Virus record (IMG/VR): IMGVR_UViG_3300031992_000089 | Coordinates: 1,911-65,910 of that record | Length of the DNA stretch: 64,000 bases | Source of the DNA: a virus | Taxonomy: Duplodnaviria > Caudoviricetes | Strand: one strand, 5' to 3' | In this document: piece by piece, positions 55 through 62,337 of the stretch | How positions within the stretch are numbered: the first letter of the stretch is position 1 | Layout: every line of letters begins with the position of its first letter | Made by a program: the position numbers and the translations under genes | The notes under the pieces: model-generated | What the model was told of the DNA's origin: nothing | Databases searched by the model: none | What the model saw: the letters and a program-made list of their open reading frames with translations, nothing else

Positions 55-165
55 TTCTAGGGTGAGGATTTGTCACCTCACATAAACAATAGCGTCCCTG
101 TTGCAACATCGAGGGGTCGAATTGTTCTTGCTGACTCTAGCGTCTACCTATTCCGCCACCTAGAA
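55..165 (-). ncRNA. tRNA-like RNA with a non-canonical central domain
   Basis: Acceptor stem TTCTAGG/CCTAGAA; Leu/Ser-type D arm TG-GCG-GAATAGGTAGA-CGC; T-like arm GTGAGG-TGACAAAT-CCTCAC. The ~58 nt between D and T arms form no standard 5-bp/7-nt anticodon arm. Confidence 0.65.
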
Positions 166-2804: not shown

Positions 2805-3767
2805 CTATGAAATGATGGTCCCGAATTTATCTACTATATCTCTAATTTCGCCCTTATAGAATACCAATACATTTTGATGTTGCCGACCTATCTTTCTGGA
2901 TTGGTTAAAATACTTCTTGGCTCGAATCGGAAGTGAACCTAAATTGTTTACAAGGATTAACTCGTTATAATATTTCAGACCACTATCCATAAGTATCTTA
3001 ATGGTATCGGGAACTAGACCTAAATATTGACTCTTCGCCATATCCTGAGGGCTCTGTCTTATTTCTGAAACAACTATGCAATAGAAGGATGATGGTTTTA
3101 GGATGTCGGCAGACTGCCGTAGGATGGTTCCGTACTTCTGCTTAAAGCACTCGTAATCAGGTAATCGGCTTAAATCTGCCGGATTCTTGGTGTATTGCTC
3201 AAGGTTGTAATATGGTGGACAAGTAAACACCATATCAAACTCGCCATACTTATCAAGAAATGTCGGGCTTCTCAACACTACCTCAGAATCGCCTTGACAC
3301 CATTCTACGGTACCACGAATATCGGAAAACTTCTCGGCAAACTCTTTAGCGTGACGGTTATTGGTCAATACTTGGTCAGGCGACAAATCAATACCTACAT
3401 AGTTTCTACCTAAAGATTCTGCAACTAACCCTCTTACACTTCCACCAGCAAATGGGTCGAGAATCTTCATGCCCGGATTACTGAACCACTTATACATCAA
3501 CTCGCATAAAAATGGGTCAAACATAGAAATACTTTCAGCGGCTTTCTCACTGTTATAGTGGGAACTGAACAGATTAGTGGGTGTTGCATTGTATCTCTTA
3601 ACATCCCTACCTTCTACGCTATGTGGCAGTATGTGTAACCAACGGCTGCGATTATTCAGCCACTCGGGCCTAGTACTATTCAATATAGAAAATGGTGCCC
3701 ACTGTGGAGCGTCATTCAGCAACTCTACGGGCAGGCGGGATACTAAACGGTCGAATAATGGCATCAA
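2805..3767 (-). CDS. SAM-dependent amino-type DNA methyltransferase (m4C or m6A)
   Basis: Motif I ILDPFAGGSVRG precedes motif IV FTCPPYY; C-terminal RKIGRQHQNVLVFYKG is typical of phage methylases. Confidence 0.8.
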   Translation of the reverse strand: MMPLFDRLVSRLPVELLNDAPQWAPFSILNSTRPEWLNNRSRWLHILPHSVEGRDVKRYNATPTNLFSSHYNSEKAAESISMFDPFLCELMYKWFSNPGMKILDPFAGGSVRGLVAESLGRNYVGIDLSPDQVLTNNRHAKEFAEKFSDIRGTVEWCQGDSEVVLRSPTFLDKYGEFDMVFTCPPYYNLEQYTKNPADLSRLPDYECFKQKYGTILRQSADILKPSSFYCIVVSEIRQSPQDMAKSQYLGLVPDTIKILMDSGLKYYNELILVNNLGSLPIRAKKYFNQSRKIGRQHQNVLVFYKGEIRDIVDKFGTIIS

Positions 3768-4816
3768 TGAAATCCTCCTTTAATATGTCTGTTTTTGAGG
3801 GCCTCGAAGGCTTTAGATTGTTCGATAGGGTACCACATATAATTATCCCACACACTCTGAAAATCTTCTGCTGGATAGCCGCGTTCCCTATATATTGTCC
3901 TCTCTAGTATGTCGCAACAATGCAAGTAGAATACCTCATCATACTCCATCTTATCATTATCCATTAACCACATAGCCTCTAGACAGCATTTCCAACATAC
4001 ACCGCATCTGTTATCAAATAATCTCACCCTGTATTTCTGTTCCGCCCTATGTTTCCAATGGGCTCTGAATCTATAAGGGCTCATACAAGATACAGACATG
4101 GTAAATAACTTCCAGTCGTTTGACAGCAGTTCAAAGGTATCAGCATTTGTCTCTAGCGGTATCAACATGTCAAACTCTGGTATTACATTCTGGACAATCT
4201 CTTTATATGCGTCCCACATCTCTATGCAGTCACCACCACATATATCAAACTCATTCATATCCAGTACAGACTTATTAAAATTACCAAAACACAAAACAGG
4301 TCTGTAATTATGGTACAAAGAGTAGTGTAGCGCACCATTAGCGATTATATAGTTCTTCAAAGGATGCTCTATGAACTGATGGGTTCCGGCTAGTTTGATA
4401 TAGTCTATGTATAAATCACAGCCTAGATAATCTGCTATTGCTTGTGCGGCTTTCTTCTCATCACCGTACGCTTTATTTACACCAGTAGCATGATATAGAT
4501 GTACTTTGTAGCCTTTCTGAACATAGTAAAATGCGGCTGCGGCACTATCTTTACCACCCGACAAGCACACGGTTATTTCTTTTTTTCGGGAAAATTTATA
4601 ATCTACCTTAGGAAAATGAAAGTCTTTAATTAGTGGTTTTCTGTACTGTACCAACTTGGAGTCTAATATCTGGTCAAGTTTAGTGAATGACGAATCTAAC
4701 CACAACGTATCTTCTGATTCAAACATATACTCGGTATCAGATATATAAGAATACAATGCCTCTATCATACTGAATACTCGGCTCTTATTTTTGTATTCAT
4801 GTATAACCCTTTGCAT
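3764..4816 (-). CDS. QueC-like PP-loop ATPase (7-cyano-7-deazaguanine synthase superfamily)
   Basis: PP-loop VCLSGGKDS; Zn ligands SC...CGVCWKCC; 4-bp overlap with the methyltransferase gene. Confidence 0.7.
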   Translation of the reverse strand: MQRVIHEYKNKSRVFSMIEALYSYISDTEYMFESEDTLWLDSSFTKLDQILDSKLVQYRKPLIKDFHFPKVDYKFSRKKEITVCLSGGKDSAAAAFYYVQKGYKVHLYHATGVNKAYGDEKKAAQAIADYLGCDLYIDYIKLAGTHQFIEHPLKNYIIANGALHYSLYHNYRPVLCFGNFNKSVLDMNEFDICGGDCIEMWDAYKEIVQNVIPEFDMLIPLETNADTFELLSNDWKLFTMSVSCMSPYRFRAHWKHRAEQKYRVRLFDNRCGVCWKCCLEAMWLMDNDKMEYDEVFYLHCCDILERTIYRERGYPAEDFQSVWDNYMWYPIEQSKAFEALKNRHIKGGFH

Positions 4817-9296: not shown

Positions 9297-10254
9297 CTAT
9301 AATCTCTACCCAGATTAACACAGCGAACAGTGCCACAATTAGTAGCACTGCTATCGCTGGGTAATTAGTTACAAACTCAAGCATGACCTGTCAACTCCTC
9401 ACACATCATCTGAAACTTTAGGTCTTCTACTTCTGCCTCAAGTTCTTCGATGCGCTTCTTTGCCGCGGTAAGTTCTGCTAAAACATACTCTTCACAGGTT
9501 CTGATTTCCATATTATTCATCTCCAAACTTTAGTTTGCCCATGGCTTCTTCTGACTCCGGCTGTTCTTCCGCATCAAATAACACCTTACAGATTTTAGAA
9601 GAAATAAGCGCACCCATCATAAGAACCATAAGACCTTTCTGCGGCGCATCTTTAGCCACTTCATCTGTAAGTTCATCTACAGCCTTAAATGAAATCTCCT
9701 TAAACTGCTTCTCTGTAAGTACAACGGTCTTTTCTTTATCATCAATAGTCATGTGTTCATCCTCCTCAACTATTTTCCTTATTACAATGCTTTTTAAGCG
9801 CCTCATTAAAGCAACCACGATTGTCAAAACACCAACGCTTCATGTAGCACAACGCCAGAGCCTTTTCCTCATCAAACGGGTCCATATCTTGACAGGTCAC
9901 TTTGGTTACTGTGTCATCTGTCCACTTAACTGCGGTAACTCGCTTCTCACGGTTGAAATTAACAATCTTAATCCTATCACTCGGTACAGGAAGTTCTTTC
10001 AAAGGGATAGCTTCGGTAATCTCTACTAATCGCTCGTAGTTACACCCAAAAGAGAGACGATAATCATCTGGTGTGCGCACTTCGCATACGATAACCGATG
10101 TAGAATACCACCCTTTGGTCGCACTTTCTATACGATACTCGCCTCCCTTTTGCAAAATCAACTTTGACTTATAATAGTAATGCTTCGGGTCATCTAAATG
10201 ACCGCTGTTAAACACGACACCATAAATATACATGTGTTCATCCTCCTCATTCAT
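9280..10254 (-). other. Small hypothetical genes: 9280-9384 (34 aa, single TM), 9377-9511 (coiled coil), 9513-9827, 9766-10254
   Basis: Two are read by eye (MLEFVTNYPAIAVLLIVALF...; MEIRTCEEYVLAEL...); the others are in the ORF track. Confidence 0.6.
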
Positions 10255-10652: not shown

Positions 10653-11729
10653 TTACTCCTCATCGAACAGTGCGATAACCTTTGTGATATTGCCGTCTTC
10701 GATTTTAAGAATTTCAGACTTGCCGAAGAAAATCTCTACTGTATCTGCCAACACTGACTTGACCTGTGATGTGAACTTCTCAATGTCCACACAACAAGTA
10801 AACTCATCGGTAGCAATACTCTCTCGATACTCAATGACCTCTACACCATCAGTCTGTTTAGAGGCAATTTGCATCTCGCTATTACGGAATGTAATATAGA
10901 TGCCATTCTCATCCATCTTTGTCACAAACAGAGACAGTCTATCCAGTACACCTAACAGTGTGGCTTTATCTACGATACAGGATGCATTTGTATCAAGTTG
11001 AACAACCTTTTTAATAGCATCGACCTGGAAGTCATCAAGATATGGCATTAACTGACTGAATACAGTGCAACGGTCTGACTTGAACATGATATACTTATCA
11101 TTCTTTGTCACTTCGATTTCCTCGCCGGACAGCAACTCAATCATATCCATTGTTGTGGCAGTAACAAGAACTGGCTTATCAAAAACTTTAGTATTTACAA
11201 TACACACCTTGAAAGAGTCTGTTGTAATAGCCTCTTCCCCAAGATAATAACCAGTGTAGCATCCATGATAACCTTTAGTAGTGTCAAGTGATGCTCCGGC
11301 AGTAGCGTGAATCATCTTTAATGTGGATAAACTCATCTTCACTGTATCACCGTCAGTAAGTTTGCTACGAACATCGGGGAACTTAACCAGTTCACCTTCA
11401 CCATCATACGGAAGTTCCAAGGTGTAGTTGCCGTTGCCTTTGATTTCCAAAGTGCCATTAACAACTTTCATCTCAACATCTTCGCTGGTAATCTTTGAGA
11501 TGAGTTTTGAAAAAATAGCAACATCCACAACAACATAGAAATCGTCTCCAGTACAGTCCTCTGTCAAATACAGATAGGTATTCTCATCCGTCGTAGTTAC
11601 AGTAAGTTTACCTTCTTTCAGTTCAAGTGCAAGCATGCCAGTAAGCGGAATATCTCCTACACAGGATGCACATTTCATAGCTTTACTGACCATGTCTTGC
11701 AGTTTTTTGGTGTTTACTTTTAGTCTCAT
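10653..11729 (-). CDS. dnaN: Sliding clamp (DNA Pol III beta-like)
   Basis: 358 aa; N-terminal MRLKVNTKKLQDMV, LELKEGKLTVTTTD, TTDSFKV and C-terminal domain pattern of beta clamps; clamp loader genes nearby. Confidence 0.8.
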   Translation of the reverse strand: MRLKVNTKKLQDMVSKAMKCASCVGDIPLTGMLALELKEGKLTVTTTDENTYLYLTEDCTGDDFYVVVDVAIFSKLISKITSEDVEMKVVNGTLEIKGNGNYTLELPYDGEGELVKFPDVRSKLTDGDTVKMSLSTLKMIHATAGASLDTTKGYHGCYTGYYLGEEAITTDSFKVCIVNTKVFDKPVLVTATTMDMIELLSGEEIEVTKNDKYIMFKSDRCTVFSQLMPYLDDFQVDAIKKVVQLDTNASCIVDKATLLGVLDRLSLFVTKMDENGIYITFRNSEMQIASKQTDGVEVIEYRESIATDEFTCCVDIEKFTSQVKSVLADTVEIFFGKSEILKIEDGNITKVIALFDEE

Positions 11730-12244
11730 ACATCAATCTCCTTCTTACCATAGCCTTTGACAAACTCACCTGTACGGAACTTAACAGACTCCGGGTCATA
11801 CACGTAAGCCTTAATGTCTTTGTCCATAGCCACAACTTTGGCGGTAGCAATATCAAGAACATAGATGACACTCTCATCGACCGAGGTCTCATCAATTACA
11901 TCAGACGTATCAATGACCATGTAAATCTTTCTGAACTCATCGTCCACAAGTCTGAACACATCTGTCGGCTCAAGTCTATCACCAGAAATGATGGCTCTGT
12001 CATAACTATCGCTTCTTTCAAGGTAAATCTTCTGTTCTTTTGTTTCTTTTATTTCAGGTGTCTTTTCTTTCATGGTGTTCCTCCCTAATAAAATCTTGTC
12101 CCAGTCAATTCTGGGCATAACATCATACTTCTCTATAAAACCGGTACAATCGACTACTGGTGTGGTATCAGTATAATAATGCACCTCTGGTAAACCGCTC
12201 GTTGACCACGATGAGTAAGGTATTTTGCTATCCTCTGGCCACAT
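11726..12244 (-). CDS. Hypothetical protein
   Basis: ORF with RBS, coupled to the clamp gene. Confidence 0.7.
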   Translation of the reverse strand: MWPEDSKIPYSSWSTSGLPEVHYYTDTTPVVDCTGFIEKYDVMPRIDWDKILLGRNTMKEKTPEIKETKEQKIYLERSDSYDRAIISGDRLEPTDVFRLVDDEFRKIYMVIDTSDVIDETSVDESVIYVLDIATAKVVAMDKDIKAYVYDPESVKFRTGEFVKGYGKKEIDV

Positions 12245-12308: not shown

Positions 12309-13160
12309 CTACGTTTTCTTATATCTGCCGCTTATAATCTTTGGAACTGACAACTCCCAATTTATTCGGTGATGCAATCTAGGATGACCTACGCCTACTG
12401 TATATATCTTAACACTGGATGGATTACAAATAACTGTAAAGAATGACTTGGTATATGTTCCAAGGGCTCTATACAACTCTGTCATTCCGCCAGATGTTTG
12501 CTGTGTTTGGGATTGGTCTAACGACATATTAGATATGGTAAAGAATAGATACCCTTTTGAGCCAAGATTAACGTATGTATTTACATCTTCATTGATACGT
12601 CCTATAAAGTCGAATCGTCTCTCTGTGGTACAGAAGAATGAGTTCATAGCCTTTCTCGCTATCTTATCCTTAAAGACTTTAGAAGTCGCACCACCTATAA
12701 AGTCTCCTGTTTGTGCTAATGCTACTGATAAGGCTCCGGTGAGTTCAAGAAAGTTAATCATCAAATCAACAATGGCATCGAACTCTCTAAGGTAAATAGA
12801 AGTAAACTCACCGTTTTCTAATCTACGCTGTCTAAAGTTAGTATAGTCATCGTCAAGTTCAAGAAAATATTTATAGCCTAGTTCTTCTGCAATATCGAAG
12901 CAGGCATTTCTAGCGTAAACAATGGCACGTCTGTCTGTTCCTCTATCTATGGTATCGAACTCCATAGACTTCTTTAACTTATCAAACATGACCACATTTT
13001 CTCTGCCGAACTTCTCATAATACTGGTCAGCGGTCTTATCTTCATTATCAATTACCAATATCACTCTATTGGTATTACCGGCACGCTTCAATGCGTCTAT
13101 GGTCTTAACTCTGTCAGGTCTTCCATGCGTAAGTATGAAAATAACAAAATCATTTCTCAC
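12309..13160 (-). CDS. GT-A fold glycosyltransferase (TAGT/GREB1-like family), copy 1
   Basis: FILTHGRPD, YARNAC, DxD motif LELDDDY, NED motif, ends ISGRYKK. Confidence 0.75.
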   Translation of the reverse strand: MRNDFVIFILTHGRPDRVKTIDALKRAGNTNRVILVIDNEDKTADQYYEKFGRENVVMFDKLKKSMEFDTIDRGTDRRAIVYARNACFDIAEELGYKYFLELDDDYTNFRQRRLENGEFTSIYLREFDAIVDLMINFLELTGALSVALAQTGDFIGGATSKVFKDKIARKAMNSFFCTTERRFDFIGRINEDVNTYVNLGSKGYLFFTISNMSLDQSQTQQTSGGMTELYRALGTYTKSFFTVICNPSSVKIYTVGVGHPRLHHRINWELSVPKIISGRYKKT

Positions 13161-13512
13161 GAATAACTCCTTTCACAAACCCTAATGCGTTAGCCGTATC
13201 TTTATCTAATACCACTAATGCGCTCTCTCGCATAAGGGCTTTCATTTCATCACTGGCATGAATATAATACCGCGCTATCTTTGTATAGTCAAACTTCATA
13301 AGTCTTGCACTGGTCAGCACTAAAAATGCCTTCTCTTTATCAGGTAAAGATGACGCCTGTATCTTATCCACCAGTTTATCATACTGCTCTGTATCAACTA
13401 AATCATATACAGAAGGTTTCAAACGTGGAATTGGCTCGAATTTAGATAATTCTTCTACATACTTGCCGTTCTCATCTACTAATGATTTGCCTACTGAAAA
13501 CGCTACGTTCAT
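13150..13512 (-). CDS. Glycosyltransferase partner protein, copy 1
   Basis: EKAFLVLTSARLMKFDYTKIARYY...SALVVLD; paralog of 14342-14749. Confidence 0.7.
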   Translation of the reverse strand: MNVAFSVGKSLVDENGKYVEELSKFEPIPRLKPSVYDLVDTEQYDKLVDKIQASSLPDKEKAFLVLTSARLMKFDYTKIARYYIHASDEMKALMRESALVVLDKDTANALGFVKGVIREK

Positions 13513-14345
13513 TTCTTGTATCTCCCACTCACTATTCTGTTGATGGCAGTTTCAGTATGTGTAATAGGCTTCCAGTGGTCTTTATAAAACCCCATATCAT
13601 TACAGTCTGGATGACTAACTACTGACATAAACGCCATCTTAAATCCGTCGAAAGTCTTATAAGTGTCCGTATTTCCACCAGCTACTTTTCCATTACCCGC
13701 ACCTACATCTATCTGCAAAGGAACATAAGTTAACCACACTTGACCCATACGATTATAATCAAGGTCGGTTATTAAGTCCTCAAACATATTCAGACGCCAA
13801 TCTACTTTATGCGCCCCATTACGTAGAAAACAGTTTACACTTATACGATATTTATTTGACCACTCCAACGCTTGTACGCCACATCTATACACGTTACATA
13901 CACCCGGCATTAAACACGCTAAATTAGCGTTCTCCACGTACTGAAAGCACTTCTCTATAATCTCATCGAAGATGCCGTGAAGATGAATAGTCTTTAACGA
14001 GCCGTCCACATCTTGCCTTAGCCGAAATTTATAGATGTCATCGTCCAGCATGATAAAATATTGATAGCCTAATCTTCGGGCAATATCTTCTATAGCATTT
14101 CTAGCAAACACAGCAAACTTCGGCACAGCCTCTGCTAACCCTACATCGGTGCGTTCAATATATAGGTTCTTGTTGAACACAATAATATTCTCCACACCAT
14201 AGTTATCTATATACTGCGGGATAGTAGGGTCTTGGTCATCTAAAACAAGATATATCTTGTGAGAAAAGCCTAGTTCTTTCAAAGTATTATAGGTTTTTTG
14301 ATTATCAGGTCTCCCATGTGTAAGAATGAAGGCAGCATAATTCAT
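13509..14345 (-). CDS. GT-A fold glycosyltransferase (TAGT/GREB1-like family), copy 2
   Basis: FILTHGRPD, FARNAI, IMLDDDI, FED motif, ends VSGRYKK. Confidence 0.75.
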   Translation of the reverse strand: MNYAAFILTHGRPDNQKTYNTLKELGFSHKIYLVLDDQDPTIPQYIDNYGVENIIVFNKNLYIERTDVGLAEAVPKFAVFARNAIEDIARRLGYQYFIMLDDDIYKFRLRQDVDGSLKTIHLHGIFDEIIEKCFQYVENANLACLMPGVCNVYRCGVQALEWSNKYRISVNCFLRNGAHKVDWRLNMFEDLITDLDYNRMGQVWLTYVPLQIDVGAGNGKVAGGNTDTYKTFDGFKMAFMSVVSHPDCNDMGFYKDHWKPITHTETAINRIVSGRYKK

Positions 14346-14749
14346 TTGTCTACCCTCACACCACTTCTGTCCATAATAGTCTGAATATCTTCTGTCAATG
14401 TGACGTAGCCGTTTCTAATCGCATCCTCAAAATCAATAAGAACTAATGCTGACTGTTCCATTAACTCCTGCATCTCTTTTTCGGAGTTGGCATAGTAATC
14501 TGCAATTAAGGCATACTTAAAAGCAATATGTCTAGTAGCGGCTAGAAGTAGGAAACGCTTCTCCTCTTCCGATACGTTAGACTCTTTAATGTTCTTGACC
14601 AATTGTCCATACTTTCTAGTATCTATGAGTGAATCCAAACTAGGCTTTACGACAGATGGTGTATATTGAGGTACTTTCTCACGCTTTGTATTTGTATATA
14701 GGTCGTCACTTCTGCTCTCTCTATCTTTAGGTTCAAATAATCCTTTCAT
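14342..14749 (-). CDS. Glycosyltransferase partner protein, copy 2
   Basis: EKRFLLLAATRHIAFKYALIADYY...SALVLIDFEDA; begins MKGLF. Confidence 0.7.
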   Translation of the reverse strand: MKGLFEPKDRESRSDDLYTNTKREKVPQYTPSVVKPSLDSLIDTRKYGQLVKNIKESNVSEEEKRFLLLAATRHIAFKYALIADYYANSEKEMQELMEQSALVLIDFEDAIRNGYVTLTEDIQTIMDRSGVRVDK

Positions 14750-52364: not shown

Positions 52365-53030
52365 TTAGTGGGGCCTAATGCCCGAAAAGTTGAATTTAAT
52401 CATCGGGGGTTCTTCATCAGAGGTGCCGTCAGACTTTGTAGAGTCAACAAAATGTGGCTTCTGGGCCGGTGGAGTTTCGGGTTCTGCTTTGTCTGCCTCA
52501 AAGGAATCTTCATTCTCGGCACGGTACGCGGCAAGAAAATCTGTCGCTCCCATAATCACACCGTCAACCATCTGCAAATTCTTGGCAATAAGTTCCGCCT
52601 CAAACTGCTTTTTGGCAGCCTTACTAGAGAACTTCTGCTGGTTAGAGAGTTCCGTAACTGCAAAACGATATGCCTGTTCTTTGAGTTGCTTCTGGTATGC
52701 CTTTGTGTCTTTGTCATACTGTCTCTGCAGGTCATCGAACTTGGTCGTAAGGTCTGACAGTTTCGTAGCATCTGTGCCAGCGGCCTCTAACTGCGTGCGT
52801 AGGTTCTGTAAATCTGTGTCTCGGGCTTTTACAGTTTCGTCAAGTGCAGTAATTCGGGTATCTCGCTTTGCCAGTTCATCGTTGTACTTCTGTGTGGAGA
52901 CATATTCTCCGGTAGAAAGGTCAACAAACTTGGCATTAGGTGCAAGTGCCGTCAACTGCTCATACGTCAGTGCGCCGCCCTCGGCGTTGTCAAACAGTTC
53001 CTTCAGGTTCATAAATAATCCTCCTAACAT
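52365..53030 (-). CDS. Capsid scaffolding protein (GP20-like)
   Basis: FVDLSTGEYVS..KY, coiled coil, KFSSKAAKK. Confidence 0.8.
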   Translation of the reverse strand: MLGGLFMNLKELFDNAEGGALTYEQLTALAPNAKFVDLSTGEYVSTQKYNDELAKRDTRITALDETVKARDTDLQNLRTQLEAAGTDATKLSDLTTKFDDLQRQYDKDTKAYQKQLKEQAYRFAVTELSNQQKFSSKAAKKQFEAELIAKNLQMVDGVIMGATDFLAAYRAENEDSFEADKAEPETPPAQKPHFVDSTKSDGTSDEEPPMIKFNFSGIRPH

Positions 53031-53234
53031 TCTGGTATCAGTTTTACTTGTAAATCCGCAGTCGCTCTCTGCGTCGGAATGTGCCTTTCTTTATATGTTG
53101 TAAGGCTCAACGATATATAACAGGGAACATCCCTAGTTATCTATTTATGGGGGAAGGTAGCAAGTCAAGGAGGGGCCGAGACTTACTACCCATCTGCTAA
53201 AGAGGACTGAACCACTTTGCCATTCCCCACGTTC
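53031..53234 (-). ncRNA. Structured ~200-nt leader of the scaffold-capsid operon
   Basis: TGGGGAA...TTCCCC enclosing GGTAGTAAGTC/GACTTGCTACC; further hairpins ATAAC-AGGGA/TCCCT-GTTAT and CGCAG/CTGCG. Confidence 0.55.
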
Positions 53235-57078: not shown

Positions 57079-57855
57079 TACTCATCTCGTCCTTTCTTAT
57101 TTTTATTAGTAAGTAACTTGTGGGCAATAGGGGTCAGTTTATTCTCGTCCATAGTAGATGACTGGCTCATCAGTTCCTTCATCTTTAAGGCATTGTTCCT
57201 CTCGCTGGCATTAGGGGAAGTAAGGAGTTTATTAAGAGATGGCGAAGCAGAATCGACCTTAACCTTACACTTTACTTCAGGTATACCATTCTTATACGCT
57301 GTAACAAACATCCACTGGTCATCCTTAGAAAGTTTGAACTGAAAGATGACATTGTCTTGCTTATTGATAGGCAGTTTCAAGGTAATCTTATTCGACCCGA
57401 CAGGGTCTAATCCCGAGCCAGCAGGTACTTTGCCACTGAAATTTACCGCGCCCTTTATGCCAAAAGTCTCATTATTGACGTTGCCCACTTTTGAAGTTTT
57501 AAAGGTTCCACGGCCAGTACTTCCCATCCTGAATCAACTCCTCCCTAATCTCATTCCACTTCTCCTGATCCATAGGCAATTCTCTACCTTCAAGCACGTA
57601 GTATATATCTCTTAAATACATAGTAATTCTTATCATCGAAGTGGTACTGTAAATCTCTTTATTATAATACTTATTCGTCTCTGTATTATATACTGCCTCT
57701 GATAATATATAATACGAGTGCGGTTGCTTCTCTACGCCCATGAACTGCTTCGTGGACAGCGTTAAATACTTGTCGTACTTCACGGAAATAGCCTTTAACA
57801 ACTTCTTTGACATTGTCCACATATTTCTGTTGCCCATTCGACCATCTCCTTTCAT
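57078..57855 (-). other. Two hypothetical genes upstream of terS: 57078-57527 and ~57499-57837
   Basis: ORFs with RBSs, coupled to terS. Confidence 0.65.
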
Positions 57856-58174
57856 TTTTCATTTTATACAGTACGACACGTTTTGTCAAAGCCCGGTTAT
57901 TTATACATTATCGCAATAATATACACCTACGCTACACGTAAGGACACACACCCGGTTATTTTGGTAGAATACTTAGGTTGTGTATCCTGTCCTCGCTTTC
58001 ACGGAAAGCGTCAATTCCGCTATACTTGCGTATAGCGTTTATCAGCGTGCATTTGAATTTACACTATATGAATATCATTTTAGCGTTTATCGCTTGTCTA
58101 TGCTATGAAAGAATAAAAAATAGCACTATGTATGCATGATACATAATGCTATATGTAACAAGAAAAAAGTGCAT

Positions 58175-58214
58175 AAAAAAAGAGTGTTCGCAAGCACTCG
58201 AACACTCTTTTTTT
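58175..58214. terminator. Intrinsic terminator
   Basis: 16-bp stem AAAAAAAGAGTGTTCG/CGAACACTCTTTTTTT, directly downstream of the 58230 gene. Confidence 0.85.
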
Positions 58215-58229
58215 GTTGGAAAGTGAAAA

Positions 58230-58754
58230 TCACTTTTTTGTGACTTTCTTTGAAGTCTTTTTGACTTCTTTTTTGACTTCTTCTTTCTTTTCCGCTGTCA
58301 CGTGCTTTTCAGCGTTTAACACGCTGAAAATCGTATTGATAACTTGCGGAACTTCTTCATATGCACAATATTTAATACAATGCGCACTGTCAAACTTAAA
58401 ACGTTCTTTGTACTTTTCCTCAAAAGCACTCTTAAAAGCATTGTGATATTTGACAGTAAAAACGATATCAAACGTTTTTCCGTTCTCTTTTCCGTATAAC
58501 TGAATAACACTTTTGTTATCACTTTTATCGATAACACGTGCATACGTTACATTGATTGACTTGTCACGTGTCTTTGTATCGCTATATTCAGCGTCAAAGA
58601 GTGCTACACGTTCATTGTTAGTAACAGCAGAAAAGATTTCTTCAAAAGCACTAACATACAAGCGAGAACGCTTGTTAACGCATTGTGCATTTCTTGTTTC
58701 ATTAGAAGAAACAAAATTCTTTTCGTTCGCAAGTAAAGTTTCATAAGTTTTCAT
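58230..58754 (-). CDS. Hypothetical protein with Lys-rich tail, encoded in the GG/CC-poor block
   Basis: RBS GTGAGGAA before ATG at 58754; own terminator; similar to 61594-62337. Confidence 0.8.
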   Translation of the reverse strand: MKTYETLLANEKNFVSSNETRNAQCVNKRSRLYVSAFEEIFSAVTNNERVALFDAEYSDTKTRDKSINVTYARVIDKSDNKSVIQLYGKENGKTFDIVFTVKYHNAFKSAFEEKYKERFKFDSAHCIKYCAYEEVPQVINTIFSVLNAEKHVTAEKKEEVKKEVKKTSKKVTKK

Positions 58755-58841
58755 AATAATTTCCTCACTTTCAATTCTTAAAAATTTGTTGATATTCAAT
58801 TGTCAAAGTGCTTGTCTGTTTGACACTTCAAATTGTAAAGA

Positions 58842-58882
58842 GTAATTATGAACAAATTGTATCGTAATTATGAACAAATTGT
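58842..58882. repeat. 19-bp direct repeat with 22-bp period in the promoter region of the 58230 gene
   Basis: GTAATTATGAACAAATTGT at 58842-58860 and 58864-58882; partial CAAATTGT at 58829-58836. Confidence 0.8.
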
Positions 58883-59281
58883 AAACATACACTATTATAT
58901 ATTCCTTTATAAGAGAATAGCATGGAATGACGTTGTAACCTCTCCGTAACATTTGCGTAACCTGCCCATCCTTTTCTGTAACATCCCTACCTAATTCCCG
59001 GAAGTCGCTGCCCCGGGGCCAGGGAGGCTTGGGCCACAGCCTACTCGCCAGCCCGGAGGACGGACAGCGGGACGGCTGGCTGGACGGAGGGCAATTCTGC
59101 CACCTGGCTGGAGGGCTGGCTGGATGGACCGTAGAACCAACCTCAAGGTGGGCCAGTTGGAGGGCCAGAAGGCCATAGGGCCAACCGTGCTACCCTCAAA
59201 GGCACAGGCCCAAACCTAAAGATAACTGAAAGTAAAATGCCCAGAGCGAACTCCGGGCACTAAACTACTCTAGGCTAAATA

Positions 59282-60484
59282 TCAGTAATGATAGGAAAGC
59301 CACTGACAAATGAACTCATGTTCTTCTTGGCAGTTAGGTGCTAGGCACTTATCATCTTCGAACTGTCTGCGGAACTTTGCCAGTAGTTTGTTGTACATTG
59401 TAGATGGTAATGTCACTGTCATCTGTCTGTCAAACTTAAGGGAGTAGTAAGTAAATGTGCTGTAGGATGTCATAAAAATACCTTCTTTCTGTGCGCTCTG
59501 CACTCTTTGATACTTTCATTGTAATGCCATTACTATACCCTATAATACAGGTCAACACTGAATTTATCGTATTTTTCCACCATTACTTTTTTTCAGTGGT
59601 GGGCTCGTTTTTTGTGGCAGAGGCCATTGCCGCGGGATACTAAATTGACCGTACTAATATTCTACTAATTTTAGGCTTCTGCCAGAGTACATATTTGTAG
59701 GGGCCACAGAGGGCCCCCATTGTATCAGCCTACCCCACACTGACAGTGGAAGTACACAGGGCATGTACGACCAGAGCAAGTTCCCCATGTATCACATGGC
59801 ATATTGGATACTGCATCTTCAAAGGCTGCAACATTCTCGGTAAACTCTGCATCATGTTCTACATTCTCCTGAATCCACTCATCTAGTGCATCGTCAGATA
59901 ACTGGGCGAGCATAAGCATTTCTTCCATCTCGGTGTCTGTAATAAAATCTAAATCTGTCATGGTAGTACCTTCTTTCTGCGCTATGCGCTATTTGCTTAT
60001 AAGTATAGTATGAGACCGAAGTTATGCCTAATTATACAGGATTATTAAAATAATGGTACACGATTTTCTCTGGCAAGGGCCTATACCCTAGTACTGTGTA
60101 TAAAAAAGAAAGGGCAGATTATACTGCCCTCTCCCATCATTTAGTTGTCTGATAAGGTCTAATGGTCCATGTGATAGGGTCTATCTCAAACATAGCATCT
60201 TCTGCACAGTGGGTCATGATAGCGTAGATACGGTCATTGTGGTACACACAGCACAGGTGATAATAAATAGGTTCATACTCATCTACATCGTCGGACGTCT
60301 GAACAACTGTGGCAAAACCACATTTCTGGTCATCGTAGTGTGCAAACTTAGGCTCACCTAAATCCAGGTCGCACAATTCACTATCGGTGATATCAGGCTC
60401 AAAATACTTCTCAATAGCGGTGACAGTCATAGCGACTTCATACAGGTCACGGTCTTCTGATTTATAAAGTTCTGCAAATCTCAT
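59282..60484 (-). other. Three monocistronic small early-type genes: 59282-59473, 59725-59961, 60137-60484
   Basis: Each has the RBS AGAAAGAAGGTA preceded by a small hairpin, and a hairpin after its stop codon. Confidence 0.7.
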
Positions 60485-61544
60485 AGGTAGTACCTTCTTT
60501 CCGTTCGCTCTATGCGAACTGTTTAATATGTATATAGTATAATGCCCTACACGCTGCCCTGTCGAGCGGCGAGCATATAGCGCATTTCTGGCAAGGGCCT
60601 ATACCAGCATAATGGTGATGTAACCTCGCCGTAATATGCCTGTAACACAGGGCATGGGCCGTAGCCTAATATGTATATTTTGTAGATTCTATATATTATC
60701 CTCTCCTGCACTTACTTACGGCAGACTTCCCAGGCTTGGGCCAAAACCTATATACACACGCATAAGAAGTCCCTCTGTCAGAGAAAGGTACAAAGACTCC
60801 GGCAGAGGGGACAACTGAATATCAAGTAGAGTGGTTGAATAAGACAAGGTCATCAGAGTGCGATATGACCTAACTGTGTATGAAGGATCGCGGTCGATAG
60901 AAAGTGGGAAAACATATCTACTGGCGTAACTCACTCTACATATATAGTATATCATAGGGCTATGTGCCGGTACAAATGGTGTGTTACAGCGATTTTCTGT
61001 GGCAATATAAACCATGGTAGTCTTGAAAAGTGTGTGGTTTTGACCCCTAGTAGGACACAAAATTTCCGAAATTATTGCCATGGTTTACACAAATTGCCAT
61101 GGTTTTTGCTGGTTTTGGCCCTATCTTACACCCCATTTTGCACGCTTTTTGGGCTTCGGCCAAGACCATTTTTCATGCGTGGACCTGGTCAAATATTTGA
61201 CCAGATAGGCAAAAATAACAAAATTGATTTTGTTTAATCGGACGCGCAAACGCTACGGTCCCAGTCGTTCCGGCGATTGTGATTTTTGGCGATTCTGGCG
61301 GGGATACGGAATTATATAAAGGTGTTTATATAAAAAAGGTGCTGGTAGATTCGAGATTATTAAGGGGTGCGGGCCTATCTGCTGGCTGGTCTGCTGGCTG
61401 GATGGTTATGGTCTGTATATTATTACTGTATAAGGGAGAGAGTAGTATTTGGATGTATAATAATCCTCTTTTTCTTCCGCCGCGGTGTAAGGAGATTTGT
61501 AATGGTGTATTACTATATATAGGTGTAATCCTTATTAGGAGATA

Positions 61545-61576
61545 AGAAAAAGGGTGTTGTTAGCACCCTCTTCTTT
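61545..61576. terminator. Intrinsic terminator
   Basis: AAGAAAAGGGTG-loop-CACCCTCTTCTT. Confidence 0.7.
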
Positions 61577-61593
61577 ATCGCCCGATATAGGTT

Positions 61594-62337
61594 TTATGCT
61601 GATACTGGCTCTGCTTTCTTTGCCTTTGCTCTGTTTTTGGTCACTTTCTTTGCCGTTTTAGGCTTGTTTTCTACTGCAGGCTTTGCTTCTGCTGTAGGTT
61701 TTTCCTCTGCTTTGGCTTCTCTTTTAGCCTTTGCTTCTGCTTTTGCCTTAGCCTTTTCCTCTCTCGCCTTGGCTCTGGCATCGTCTGTATTTTCGAGGAT
61801 AGCACAGACGGTCTTTACTACTTCACCGATGCCGTAGTAAGAGATGCCCTCTTTATAGGAAGTCTTTGCCTGACCTGCCTTGTTCCTTGCTACCTCAAAC
61901 CGCAGTTCCTCTTCCAGGGCAGTCAACTGCTCACGGTTCATCTCTGCACACGAGGTGCACAGGGCAAAAGAGATGTCACCCGTCTTATAGTTCGGGCGCT
62001 TTGTGTACACCTGAATCATGGAATCTCCGGCATCATCAACTACACGGTAGTAGTCAACAAGCCACTGATTACACTGCCCCTTCGCAAGTTGAGCATCGGT
62101 CTTGTTGTGGAAGCCGGACTTCTCATAGTTGGCATCGAGAACAAGGTGTCTGTTCTGTCCTTCCAGGGCTTTTGCAAGTTCGCGGTACACGAGCAAGCAA
62201 TACTTCTCCTTGTTGGAGAGTGTGGTGATGTCGATGTTCTCATTAGGTCCGAGAATGCCCTGCAAGGTATCATCTGTAACGGTAACGAGTTCCTCGGCGA
62301 GTTCATTGATGGTCTTGATGGTCTCATTGTTCTTCAT
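61594..62337 (-). CDS. Hypothetical protein with Lys/Ala-rich (histone H1-like) tail
   Basis: RBS AAGGAGG; tail AKAREEKAKAKAEAKAK...KTAKKVTK; own promoter and terminator. Confidence 0.85.
   Translation of the reverse strand: MKNNETIKTINELAEELVTVTDDTLQGILGPNENIDITTLSNKEKYCLLVYRELAKALEGQNRHLVLDANYEKSGFHNKTDAQLAKGQCNQWLVDYYRVVDDAGDSMIQVYTKRPNYKTGDISFALCTSCAEMNREQLTALEEELRFEVARNKAGQAKTSYKEGISYYGIGEVVKTVCAILENTDDARAKAREEKAKAKAEAKAKREAKAEEKPTAEAKPAVENKPKTAKKVTKNRAKAKKAEPVSA

Follow-up and report, generated by a model that had tools for sequence, protein, structure and literature searches.

A GG/CC-free cassette upstream of the packaging genes

We analyzed a stretch of 64,000 nucleotides of phage DNA (the window), which comprises bases 1911 to 65910 of one 65.9-kb contig (IMG/VR record IMGVR_UViG_3300031992_000089); the genome of this phage is referred to as G000. 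Nearly all of its genes lie on the minus strand. In the order of transcription, a group of small, early-type genes (64000 to 59282) is followed by a 900-bp block (58021 to 58920) almost devoid of GG and CC dinucleotides, then by a sigma-70 promoter, genes for proteins of 118 and 149 amino acids (aa), terS, terL and the portal gene. The block covers a cassette with its own promoter, a gene for a 174-aa protein and a terminator (Table 1). The near-absence of GG and CC is a strand-symmetric ban that acts at the level of the DNA, is limited to the cassette and is under selection.

Table 1. Features of the cassette, its surroundings and the candidate DNA-modification genes (positions in the window)
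Feature	Position	Strand	Remarks
N6/N4-type DNA methyltransferase overlapping a 350-aa PP-loop ATPase	2805-4816		ATPase at 3764-4816
TAGT glycosyltransferase	12309-13160		PF20691, E 1.6e-34
Paralogous small TAGT partner	13150-13512		No match
TAGT glycosyltransferase	13509-14345		PF20691, E 1.1e-22
Small TAGT partner, weakly ParB-like	14342-14749		phrog_620, E 6e-7
Late/packaging operon promoter TTGACA-17-TAAAAT	57889-57861	-	Part of downstream edge element 57861-57961
Two copies of AAATAACCGG (plus strand CCCGGTTATTT)	57892-57902, 57951-57961	-	Mark the downstream edge of the module
GG/CC-free trailer	58021-58174	-	Second hairpin 58120-58152; invariant palindrome 58021-58038 (7-bp arms, GCAA center)
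Bidirectional intrinsic terminator	58175-58214	.	16-bp perfect stem without GG/CC, flanked by A run and T run
GG/CC-free 174-aa gene	58230-58754	-	2 Gly, 1 Pro, 0 Trp; Lys-rich tail
Ribosome-binding site GAGGA	about 58762-58768	-
Third, inverted partial copy of 20-bp repeat	58778-58794
Two perfect 20-bp direct repeats	58842-58861, 58864-58883		Overlap the cassette promoter
Cassette promoter TTTACA-18-TACAAT	58885-58856	-	AT-rich; within repeat region 58842-58885
Four GTTAC motifs	58935-58982	-	GTAAC on plus strand at 58935, 58946, 58957 and 58978; three phased at 11 bp
GG/CC-dense patch	58985-59250	.	(GGNN)n on plus strand, (NNCC)n on gene strand, period 4
Terminator-like hairpin	59236-59261	.	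Upstream of the GG/CC-dense patch
Paralogue of the 174-aa protein (247 aa)	61594-62337	-	About 3 kb upstream; normal GG/CC; internal control

Extent of the depletion

From its own base content (GC 31.6%, compared with 40.5% for the genome), the block would be expected to contain 19.1 GG and 26.0 CC, and it contains two and six, respectively (Poisson P for 8 or fewer given 45.1, 1.4e-11). A preliminary description of this DNA, made from the letters alone, had counted eight such sites, all of them TCC/GGA, and our recount matches it exactly. The sites lie at 58218, 58292, 58348, 58418, 58480, 58492, 58763 and 58904; with respect to the minus-strand gene, they form two Gly codons (GGA), one Pro codon (CCG) and two codon junctions, one falls in the ribosome-binding site and two are non-coding. 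The same description had noted that CG and GC remain plentiful, and both exceed the expectation of 22.3 (32 CG and 35 GC). The promoter repeats and the terminator stem, the latter without GG and CC, were confirmed, and the block ends sharply on either side, with 27 GG/CC per 100 bp immediately upstream and 6 to 14 downstream. Between 60 and 200 bp after the stop codon, there is no GG/CC versus 6.1 expected.

A sliding-window scan, which had been proposed as a check, sets the block clearly apart. Its observed-to-expected ratio is 0.19, whereas 900-bp segments across the window average 0.92 (standard deviation, 0.13) and the lowest of the other independent segments reaches 0.62. No comparable hole was found for any other dinucleotide. 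The depletion is confined to the block, which is the only such zone in the 65.9-kb genome, and is not a genome-wide property (genome-wide ratios: GG, 1.06; CC, 0.88; GGCC, 0.64; CCGG, 0.91).

Selection acts on double-stranded DNA

The preliminary description attributed the depletion to strong selection to lack target sites. This attribution is strongly supported by a purge at the levels of amino acids, synonymous codons, codon junctions and promoter DNA, which is kept in diverged orthologues and in 17 of 26 relatives. Gly, Pro and Trp make up 3 of the 174 residues of the protein, compared with 10.6% in the other proteins of the phage. Synonymous resampling of the gene gave 20.8 ± 3.8 GG/CC, and none of 3,000 resamples was as low as the five observed; the largest shortfalls among the other genes of the window (75 to 107 observed versus 96 to 134 expected) are not proportionally close. 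Avoidance extends to codon junctions, at which only 1 GG/CC was found versus 15.8 with permuted synonymous codons at locus L013 and 3 versus 24.2 at locus L014. Pooled over the family, the untranscribed promoter DNA (positions -200 to -60) holds 45 GG/CC versus 89 expected (P, 2e-7). The removal of both GG and CC, together with the purge of untranscribed promoter DNA, indicates that the target is double-stranded DNA and not RNA. A limited supply of tRNAs or amino acids was also considered and is ruled out, since codon junctions, as well as promoter DNA, are purged.

Comparison with relatives gives a similar picture. Five orthologues (65 to 92% protein identity, the same synteny, all starting with MKT) show codon-level depletion, with z scores of -1.7 to -4.4. 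Their DNA is 26 to 33% diverged from that of the window, and they keep 5 to 11 GG/CC versus the 21 to 25 that would be present if the changes had fallen randomly; the depletion is thus maintained despite divergence, a comparison that the preliminary description had put forward. The 247-aa paralogue serves as an internal control. It aligns end to end with the 174-aa protein at about 30% identity and shares its KT(A/S)KKVTK tail, and it has 74 GG/CC versus 59 expected from synonymous resampling.

Pooling of 11 blocks gave 76 GG/CC versus 648 expected (0.12), while no other dinucleotide fell below 0.72; the rarest trinucleotides were ACC/GGT and GCC/GGC (0.03 to 0.04). In the clade of the window, none of the 73 residual sites is RCC and each surviving run of C is preceded by T, so that the strict ban in this clade is on GGY/RCC. 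The earlier guess that ACC, GCC and CCC contexts would be missing therefore holds and can be refined to this motif. The same ban is found at GC contents from 26% to 46%, with its edges at the limits of the cassette, and in the blocks at 45 to 46% GC it is accompanied by a doubling of CG and GC.

These data bear on whether the sites themselves need to be under selection. A depleted block could also arise if the DNA had been imported from a donor poor in GG/CC, if mutation acted locally (e.g., CC-specific deamination) or if a ribonuclease motif were avoided at the RNA level, and the higher AT content of the block relative to the genome is in keeping with such an origin. We regard these explanations as scarcely credible. 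Import and mutational decay are both rejected because the paralogue in the same genome is normal, synteny is conserved and diverged orthologues avoid recreating GG/CC; for recent import from a GG/CC-depleted donor, which the preliminary description had raised against its own reading, the occurrence of the ban across 26 to 46% GC is a further argument. GC-rich blocks in which CG and GC are doubled are the opposite of what deamination would leave, and they rule out deamination as well as import. An RNA-level cause would leave the purge of both strands and of untranscribed promoter DNA unexplained. Messenger RNAs lacking ACA are known to escape the MazF endoribonuclease. That case is similar in that a gene rewritten without the nuclease word stays expressed, but it is strand specific and operates on RNA, unlike the purge of both DNA strands observed here.

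The ban belongs to a genomic slot

A profile search detected 44 representative relatives of the 174-aa protein, of which about 20 lack any Gly, Pro or Trp across 155 to 244 residues. Their genes have 0 to 7 GG/CC over 0.7 to 1.1 kb versus 43 to 97 expected, with many at 0 to 3 in 0.7 to 1 kb, and the blocks have sharp edges, which coincide with the promoter on one side and with the gene end or terminator on the other. In a family tree made by a quick method and poorly resolved, the members without Gly, Pro and Trp are scattered, with at least two forced changes.

We also surveyed the DNA upstream of terL in 26 IMG/VR relatives with enough upstream sequence, accepting blocks with an observed-to-expected ratio of 0.11 or less. 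Seventeen of these carry a GG/CC-free block of 390 to 1027 bp that ends 1.1 to 2.3 kb before terL, and nine do not. The encoded proteins, for some of which the choice of open reading frame (ORF) was automatic, do not match the family profile even at an E value of 10, the exception being L035 (same contig as L029), and have no mutual BLASTP match, one trio excepted; at least ten protein types are represented. All are small and poor in or free of Gly, Pro and Trp, with tails rich in Lys, Thr, Ser, Ala and Gln that often end in TA, SA or EA. Because these proteins match neither the family profile nor each other, the ban belongs to the genomic slot and not to one recognizable protein family. Mutually dissimilar cassettes were seen in L041, L042, L046 to L048, L051, L053 to L055, L058, L063, L069 and L073; their proteins may be analogues of one another or members of a single family that evolves very fast. 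Since the ban recurs across the phage group and across unrelated proteins, something in these infections must read the GG/CC step.

Three related genomes lack the ban. G001 and G002 have a family member of normal composition in the slot and no GG/CC-poor zone anywhere, and G008 has no GG/CC-poor block before terL. The slot protein of G001 is still poor in Gly, Pro and Trp (2.5%) though its DNA is normal, and this composition looks like a relic of a lost ban. When the gene content of G000 was contrasted with that of G001 and G002, only small ORFs that could not be annotated were specific to G000 (e.g., 11726 to 12244 and 9535 to 10029).

A GG/CC-dense patch often accompanies the ban

The patch upstream of the cassette is where GG/CC is densest in the genome. 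It has 45 GG/CC per 150 bp versus 26 for the next-best segment in the genome, and its period-4 score is 35 versus 8 or less elsewhere. Each of the five clade members shows autocorrelation peaks at lags of 4, 8, 12 and 16, and it is the CC dinucleotides that form the conserved columns. No such period-4 array is present in G001 or G002, from which patch and ban are both missing; the two come and go together. At 9 of the 17 loci with a block, the densest GG/CC segment within 4 kb ends 31 to 61 bp before the block. At L033, a GC-rich block is situated downstream of the gene. For the patch, RNAalifold found no RNA structure supported by covariation, as the covariation term was positive and many pairs were broken, and Rfam searches of positions 57800 to 61650, at the gathering threshold and at E values up to 1, found nothing credible. 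Between patch and promoter, the GTTAC array is an invariant block in the alignment of five relatives, and the patch of the distant locus L016 holds GTTACC twice. Judged by sequence, the array is a candidate protein-binding site.

Sites for cos or pac cleavage usually lie near terS, and in lambda-like phages they mark the end that enters the capsid first and leaves it last. A packaging site or an origin could be formed by the patch together with the GTTAC repeats, with the neighboring kilobase having to lack GG/CC for the terminase, the portal or the replication machinery and the gene simply being located there. We consider this very improbable. The phased, invariant repeats and the unique GC-rich patch are at the usual location of such sites, the position of the block 1.1 to 2.3 kb before terL is fixed in 17 loci, and the rapid turnover of the proteins would suit a gene of secondary importance. 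The edges of the depletion, however, track the promoter and the gene end or terminator and not a set distance from the patch, the GC-rich block at L033 is on the other side of the gene, and the orthologues are well conserved as proteins. Moreover, recognition of GG/CC is not known to us for any step of packaging or replication.

Restriction avoidance and host defense

The genome as a whole avoids several short palindromes, with 8 GATC versus 234 expected and 15 AGCT versus 257 expected; ATTAAT, GAATTC and TTTAAA are avoided too. The relatives G001 and G002 avoid other words (CTAG, CATG and ACGT), and the difference suggests that these phages have different hosts and are under heavy pressure from type II restriction. 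If a mark protected palindromes containing GG or CC, these should be spared across the genome; strong avoidance affects none of 8 such palindromes versus 16 of 88 others, which is not a significant difference (P about 0.2). Avoidance of restriction sites and of protospacer adjacent motifs (PAMs) in general is like the present case in that a short word is removed on both strands and through synonymous sites. Known examples, however, are genome-wide and involve words of 4 to 6 bp or weak PAM biases, whereas here a 2-bp step is removed from one cassette of 0.4 to 1 kb.

The preliminary description had offered, as one of two readings, a first-injected end kept free of restriction sites. In a broader form, a first-acting anti-defense or take-over cassette would avoid host restriction sites or the PAMs of clustered regularly interspaced short palindromic repeat (CRISPR) systems until its product is made. 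We judge this, the main rival of the explanation preferred below, to be unlikely. The commonest minimal PAMs are NGG for Cas9 and CC for several type I systems. A slot full of small, dissimilar proteins behind a strong sigma-70 promoter is the pattern of an anti-defense locus; the ban is on or off among close relatives whose palindrome avoidance differs, pointing to different hosts; and the counts for GATC and AGCT attest to heavy pressure on the group. There is also a precedent in phage T5, where only spacers against the first-injected pre-early region protect; this region is likewise a small, first-expressed part of the genome under defense pressure, which provides a rationale for local purging (PMC5389539). 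However, the T5 region spans 10 kb, is terminally repeated, contains many genes and is injected in stages, whereas here a single gene beside terS is subject to a ban at the dinucleotide level.

Other observations are harder to reconcile with host defense. A cut elsewhere in the genome would be equally fatal unless entry of the DNA is staged. The position of the block gives no indication of first entry, as it adjoins terS, usually the first-packaged and last-injected side, and lies 5.2 kb from a contig end that, in the circular relative G002, runs on into the opposite end. Pressure from PAMs varies with the spacers of the hosts, yet three amino acids are eliminated here, and phage genomes are reported to show weak depletion of PAMs. 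To our knowledge, a preference for avoiding GGY over GGA is not known for NGG or CC PAMs. Palindromes without GG or CC (GCGC, CGCG, ACGT and TGCA) are normal or raised inside the blocks, and the adjoining GG/CC-dense patch is left unexplained.

A proposed phage-borne mark or reader

Our tentative preference is for a different explanation, in which the block avoids a GG/CC-directed DNA mark or reader that is carried by the phage. We infer that some agent present in every infection reads GG/CC on double-stranded DNA and that each site within the cassette is costly. In many members the purge is near-total (0 to 3 GG/CC and zero Gly, Pro and Trp), as would be expected of an agent active at every site in every infection more than of occasional targeting, and a context rule as strict as the absence of RCC is typical of an enzyme motif. 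On this reading, the block is one copy of a conserved two-part module of this phage group, in which a GG/CC-dense patch is followed by a strongly promoted, terminator-bounded cassette. The agent may be a DNA mark with specificity at the dinucleotide level or a factor that coats DNA, starting from the GG/CC patch; a mark might be made by the orphan pairs of ParB-like and TAGT glycosyltransferase proteins or by the pair of methyltransferase and PP-loop ATPase. Kept blind to this agent, the cassette would be the one unit that host RNA polymerase reads unhindered. It is possible, if doubtful, that this is a general arrangement, such that phages which mark the GG/CC step, or have it read, keep one "blind" transcription unit, with the dense pad as a loading site or insulator.

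Candidate enzymes for such a mark are present in the genome. Two tandem pairs, each of a small partner and a TAGT glycosyltransferase (12309 to 14749), lie directly behind the gene for PolA, and every complete genome of the group has two or three TAGT genes. The PP-loop ATPase has a generic similarity to QueC, TtuA and MnmA, with a QueC-like N terminus at an E value of 9e-4, below the cut-off. The methyltransferase/PP-loop pair is conserved in G002, at 52% and 67% identity. There is precedent for modification of phage DNA at short motifs, as phage CAjan carries preQ0 at GA and GGC (PMC7544227), and 5mYOX thymine dioxygenases prefer NTC or NTG, have ParB activators and feed glycosyltransferases (PMC13229309). 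In these hypermodification systems, phage enzymes act after replication and mark DNA in contexts of 2 to 3 nucleotides; the present phage has TAGT-type glycosyltransferases, and one of their two small partners is weakly ParB-like. The systems differ in that no DpdA/TGT, TET/5mYOX, C5-methyltransferase or hydroxymethylase was found here. We have found no description in the literature of a mark-free island in motif-specific hypermodified phages.

Several observations argue against a phage-borne mark. Enzymes that would supply a hydroxymethyl acceptor were not found in the whole genome at E values up to 10 (PF12851, TET/JBP; PF00145, C5-methyltransferase; PF00303, thymidylate synthase), and DpdA/TGT (PF01702) was not found in G000 or in five complete relatives with the ban. 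FolE, QueD and QueE were not seen among the scanned ORFs, although no search was aimed at them by name. G001, G002 and G008 carry TAGT and ParB-like genes, and G002 also carries the methyltransferase/PP-loop pair, without a ban before terL; unless these marker genes differ in specificity, their presence is thus no predictor of the ban. The avoidance of GATC and AGCT indicates that the DNA has no broad protection against restriction. Finally, a mark that blocks the polymerase would block other early genes too, so that an extra assumption about timing or product would be needed. The other reading of the preliminary description, a boot sector kept free of the modification of the phage itself so that host RNA polymerase can transcribe it first, is affected in the same way. 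The phage does have candidate genes for marking DNA, in the form of the two ParB-like/TAGT pairs and the methyltransferase/PP-loop pair, but the presence of such genes in ban-less relatives speaks against it.

Whichever agent is responsible, a rule at the level of DNA has here been so strong that three amino acids have disappeared from proteins. If a phage-borne mark or reader is the cause, the "blind" unit would be a new regulatory and anti-defense architecture, and the GGY/RCC footprint would show which motif is targeted by the orphan ParB-like/TAGT pairs, a widespread kind of DNA glycosyltransferase module. The action and motif of the ParB-like/TAGT or methyltransferase/PP-loop modules, or of a GG/CC-reading host defense, become directly testable. 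The cassettes also provide a catalogue of small, fast-evolving proteins that are predicted to be strongly expressed and may be regulators or anti-defense factors, and a scan for dinucleotides that are locally banned offers a simple means of finding such modules in metagenomes.

The 174-aa protein and its possible roles

The 174-aa protein belongs to no family in Pfam (E of 0.1 or less), PHROG (1e-3) or NCBIfam (1e-2). Among cultured phages, there was no match for this protein, its paralogue or protein P0021, and no DNA match either; IMG/VR searches with the 174-aa protein and with P0035 gave no match, the ESM Atlas gave no usable match for it, and a search of 185,579 prokaryote genomes gave no relative. 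An AlphaFold (AF2) model built with 36 relatives as the alignment has a predicted local distance difference test score (pLDDT) of 88 and combines a five-stranded sheet with helices, of which the C-terminal one is long. Its best matches include a Pyrococcus hypothetical protein (Z, 6.2), the C-terminal domain of T4 MotA (5jlt_A: VIA Z, 6.0; root mean square deviation, 3.5 Å; 101 of 114 residues; 6k4y_M: Z, 5.9) and the YdhG, YjbR and DUF1801 folds (Z, 5.0 to 5.8), all of them under the guide value of Z 8 and hence below the level that excludes chance. The MotA C-terminal structures were matched both with and without DNA. An earlier, poorer model also matched MotA (Foldseek probability, 0.66), YjbR and DUF1801. 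With MotA, the likeness is that of a small alpha/beta, saddle-like fold; there is no sequence similarity and the score is within the range of chance.

A product that itself binds or acts on GG/CC DNA could also account for the module, the patch being its landing pad and its own gene being kept free of sites so as to stay expressed. The weak but repeated likeness to the DNA-binding double-wing domain of MotA and the Lys-rich tail would suit such a role, as would the joint appearance and disappearance of patch and ban and the unpurged state of the paralogue elsewhere in the genome. We nevertheless hold it to be improbable, as the dissimilar proteins found under the same ban would all need one DNA specificity. 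In addition, the core of the protein is near neutral and many tails in the family are acidic, and the match to the MotA fold has a Z value below 8.

With regard to function, the cassette product is a small, fast-evolving protein, here with a weakly MotA-like alpha/beta fold, and a candidate regulator or anti-defense factor at the gate of the late/packaging operon. In many phages of Gram-positive bacteria, late activators of the RinA, ArpU or LtrC type are encoded just upstream of terS. The protein studied here shares their position before the late/packaging operon and has no sequence similarity to them (no Pfam or PHROG match). By analogy, the location of the gene before terS, together with a late promoter preceded by paired repeats, resembles that of a late activator and provides a lead. 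A pair of direct repeats before a late TTGACA promoter is lineage specific, being found here at 57892 to 57961, in L029 at 1440 to 1620 and in L018 at 10780 to 10860; the paired repeats that precede the late promoter in L029 and in G002 are of other sequence. Such lineage-specific repeats are consistent with an activator site evolving in step with the cassette gene next to it.

Other features of the phage

The terL gene product is 43 to 49% identical to those of Clostridium phages, Blautia phages and human fecal phage contigs, and the same DNA is found in sheep and bovine gut metagenomes (Logan contigs); the phages that carry the module are rumen and gut siphophages. The genome encodes much of its own DNA metabolism (PolA, clamp, clamp loader, SSB, a UvsX-like recombinase, primase and helicases). 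Between the small early-type genes, about 1.1 kb (60550 to 61590) has no convincing ORF and is gene-free in the relatives L001, L003 and L006 as well. It gave no Rfam match even at E values up to 1 and is possibly an RNA or a regulatory region. Close by, a 518-bp insertion (60076 to 60595) with a gene for a 115-aa protein (60137 to 60484) is missing from bovine-gut relatives, whose contigs join across it. A GP20-a RNA motif (RF02991, 73 bits; 53017 to 53115) occurs on the minus strand, where it directly follows the portal gene in the direction of transcription.

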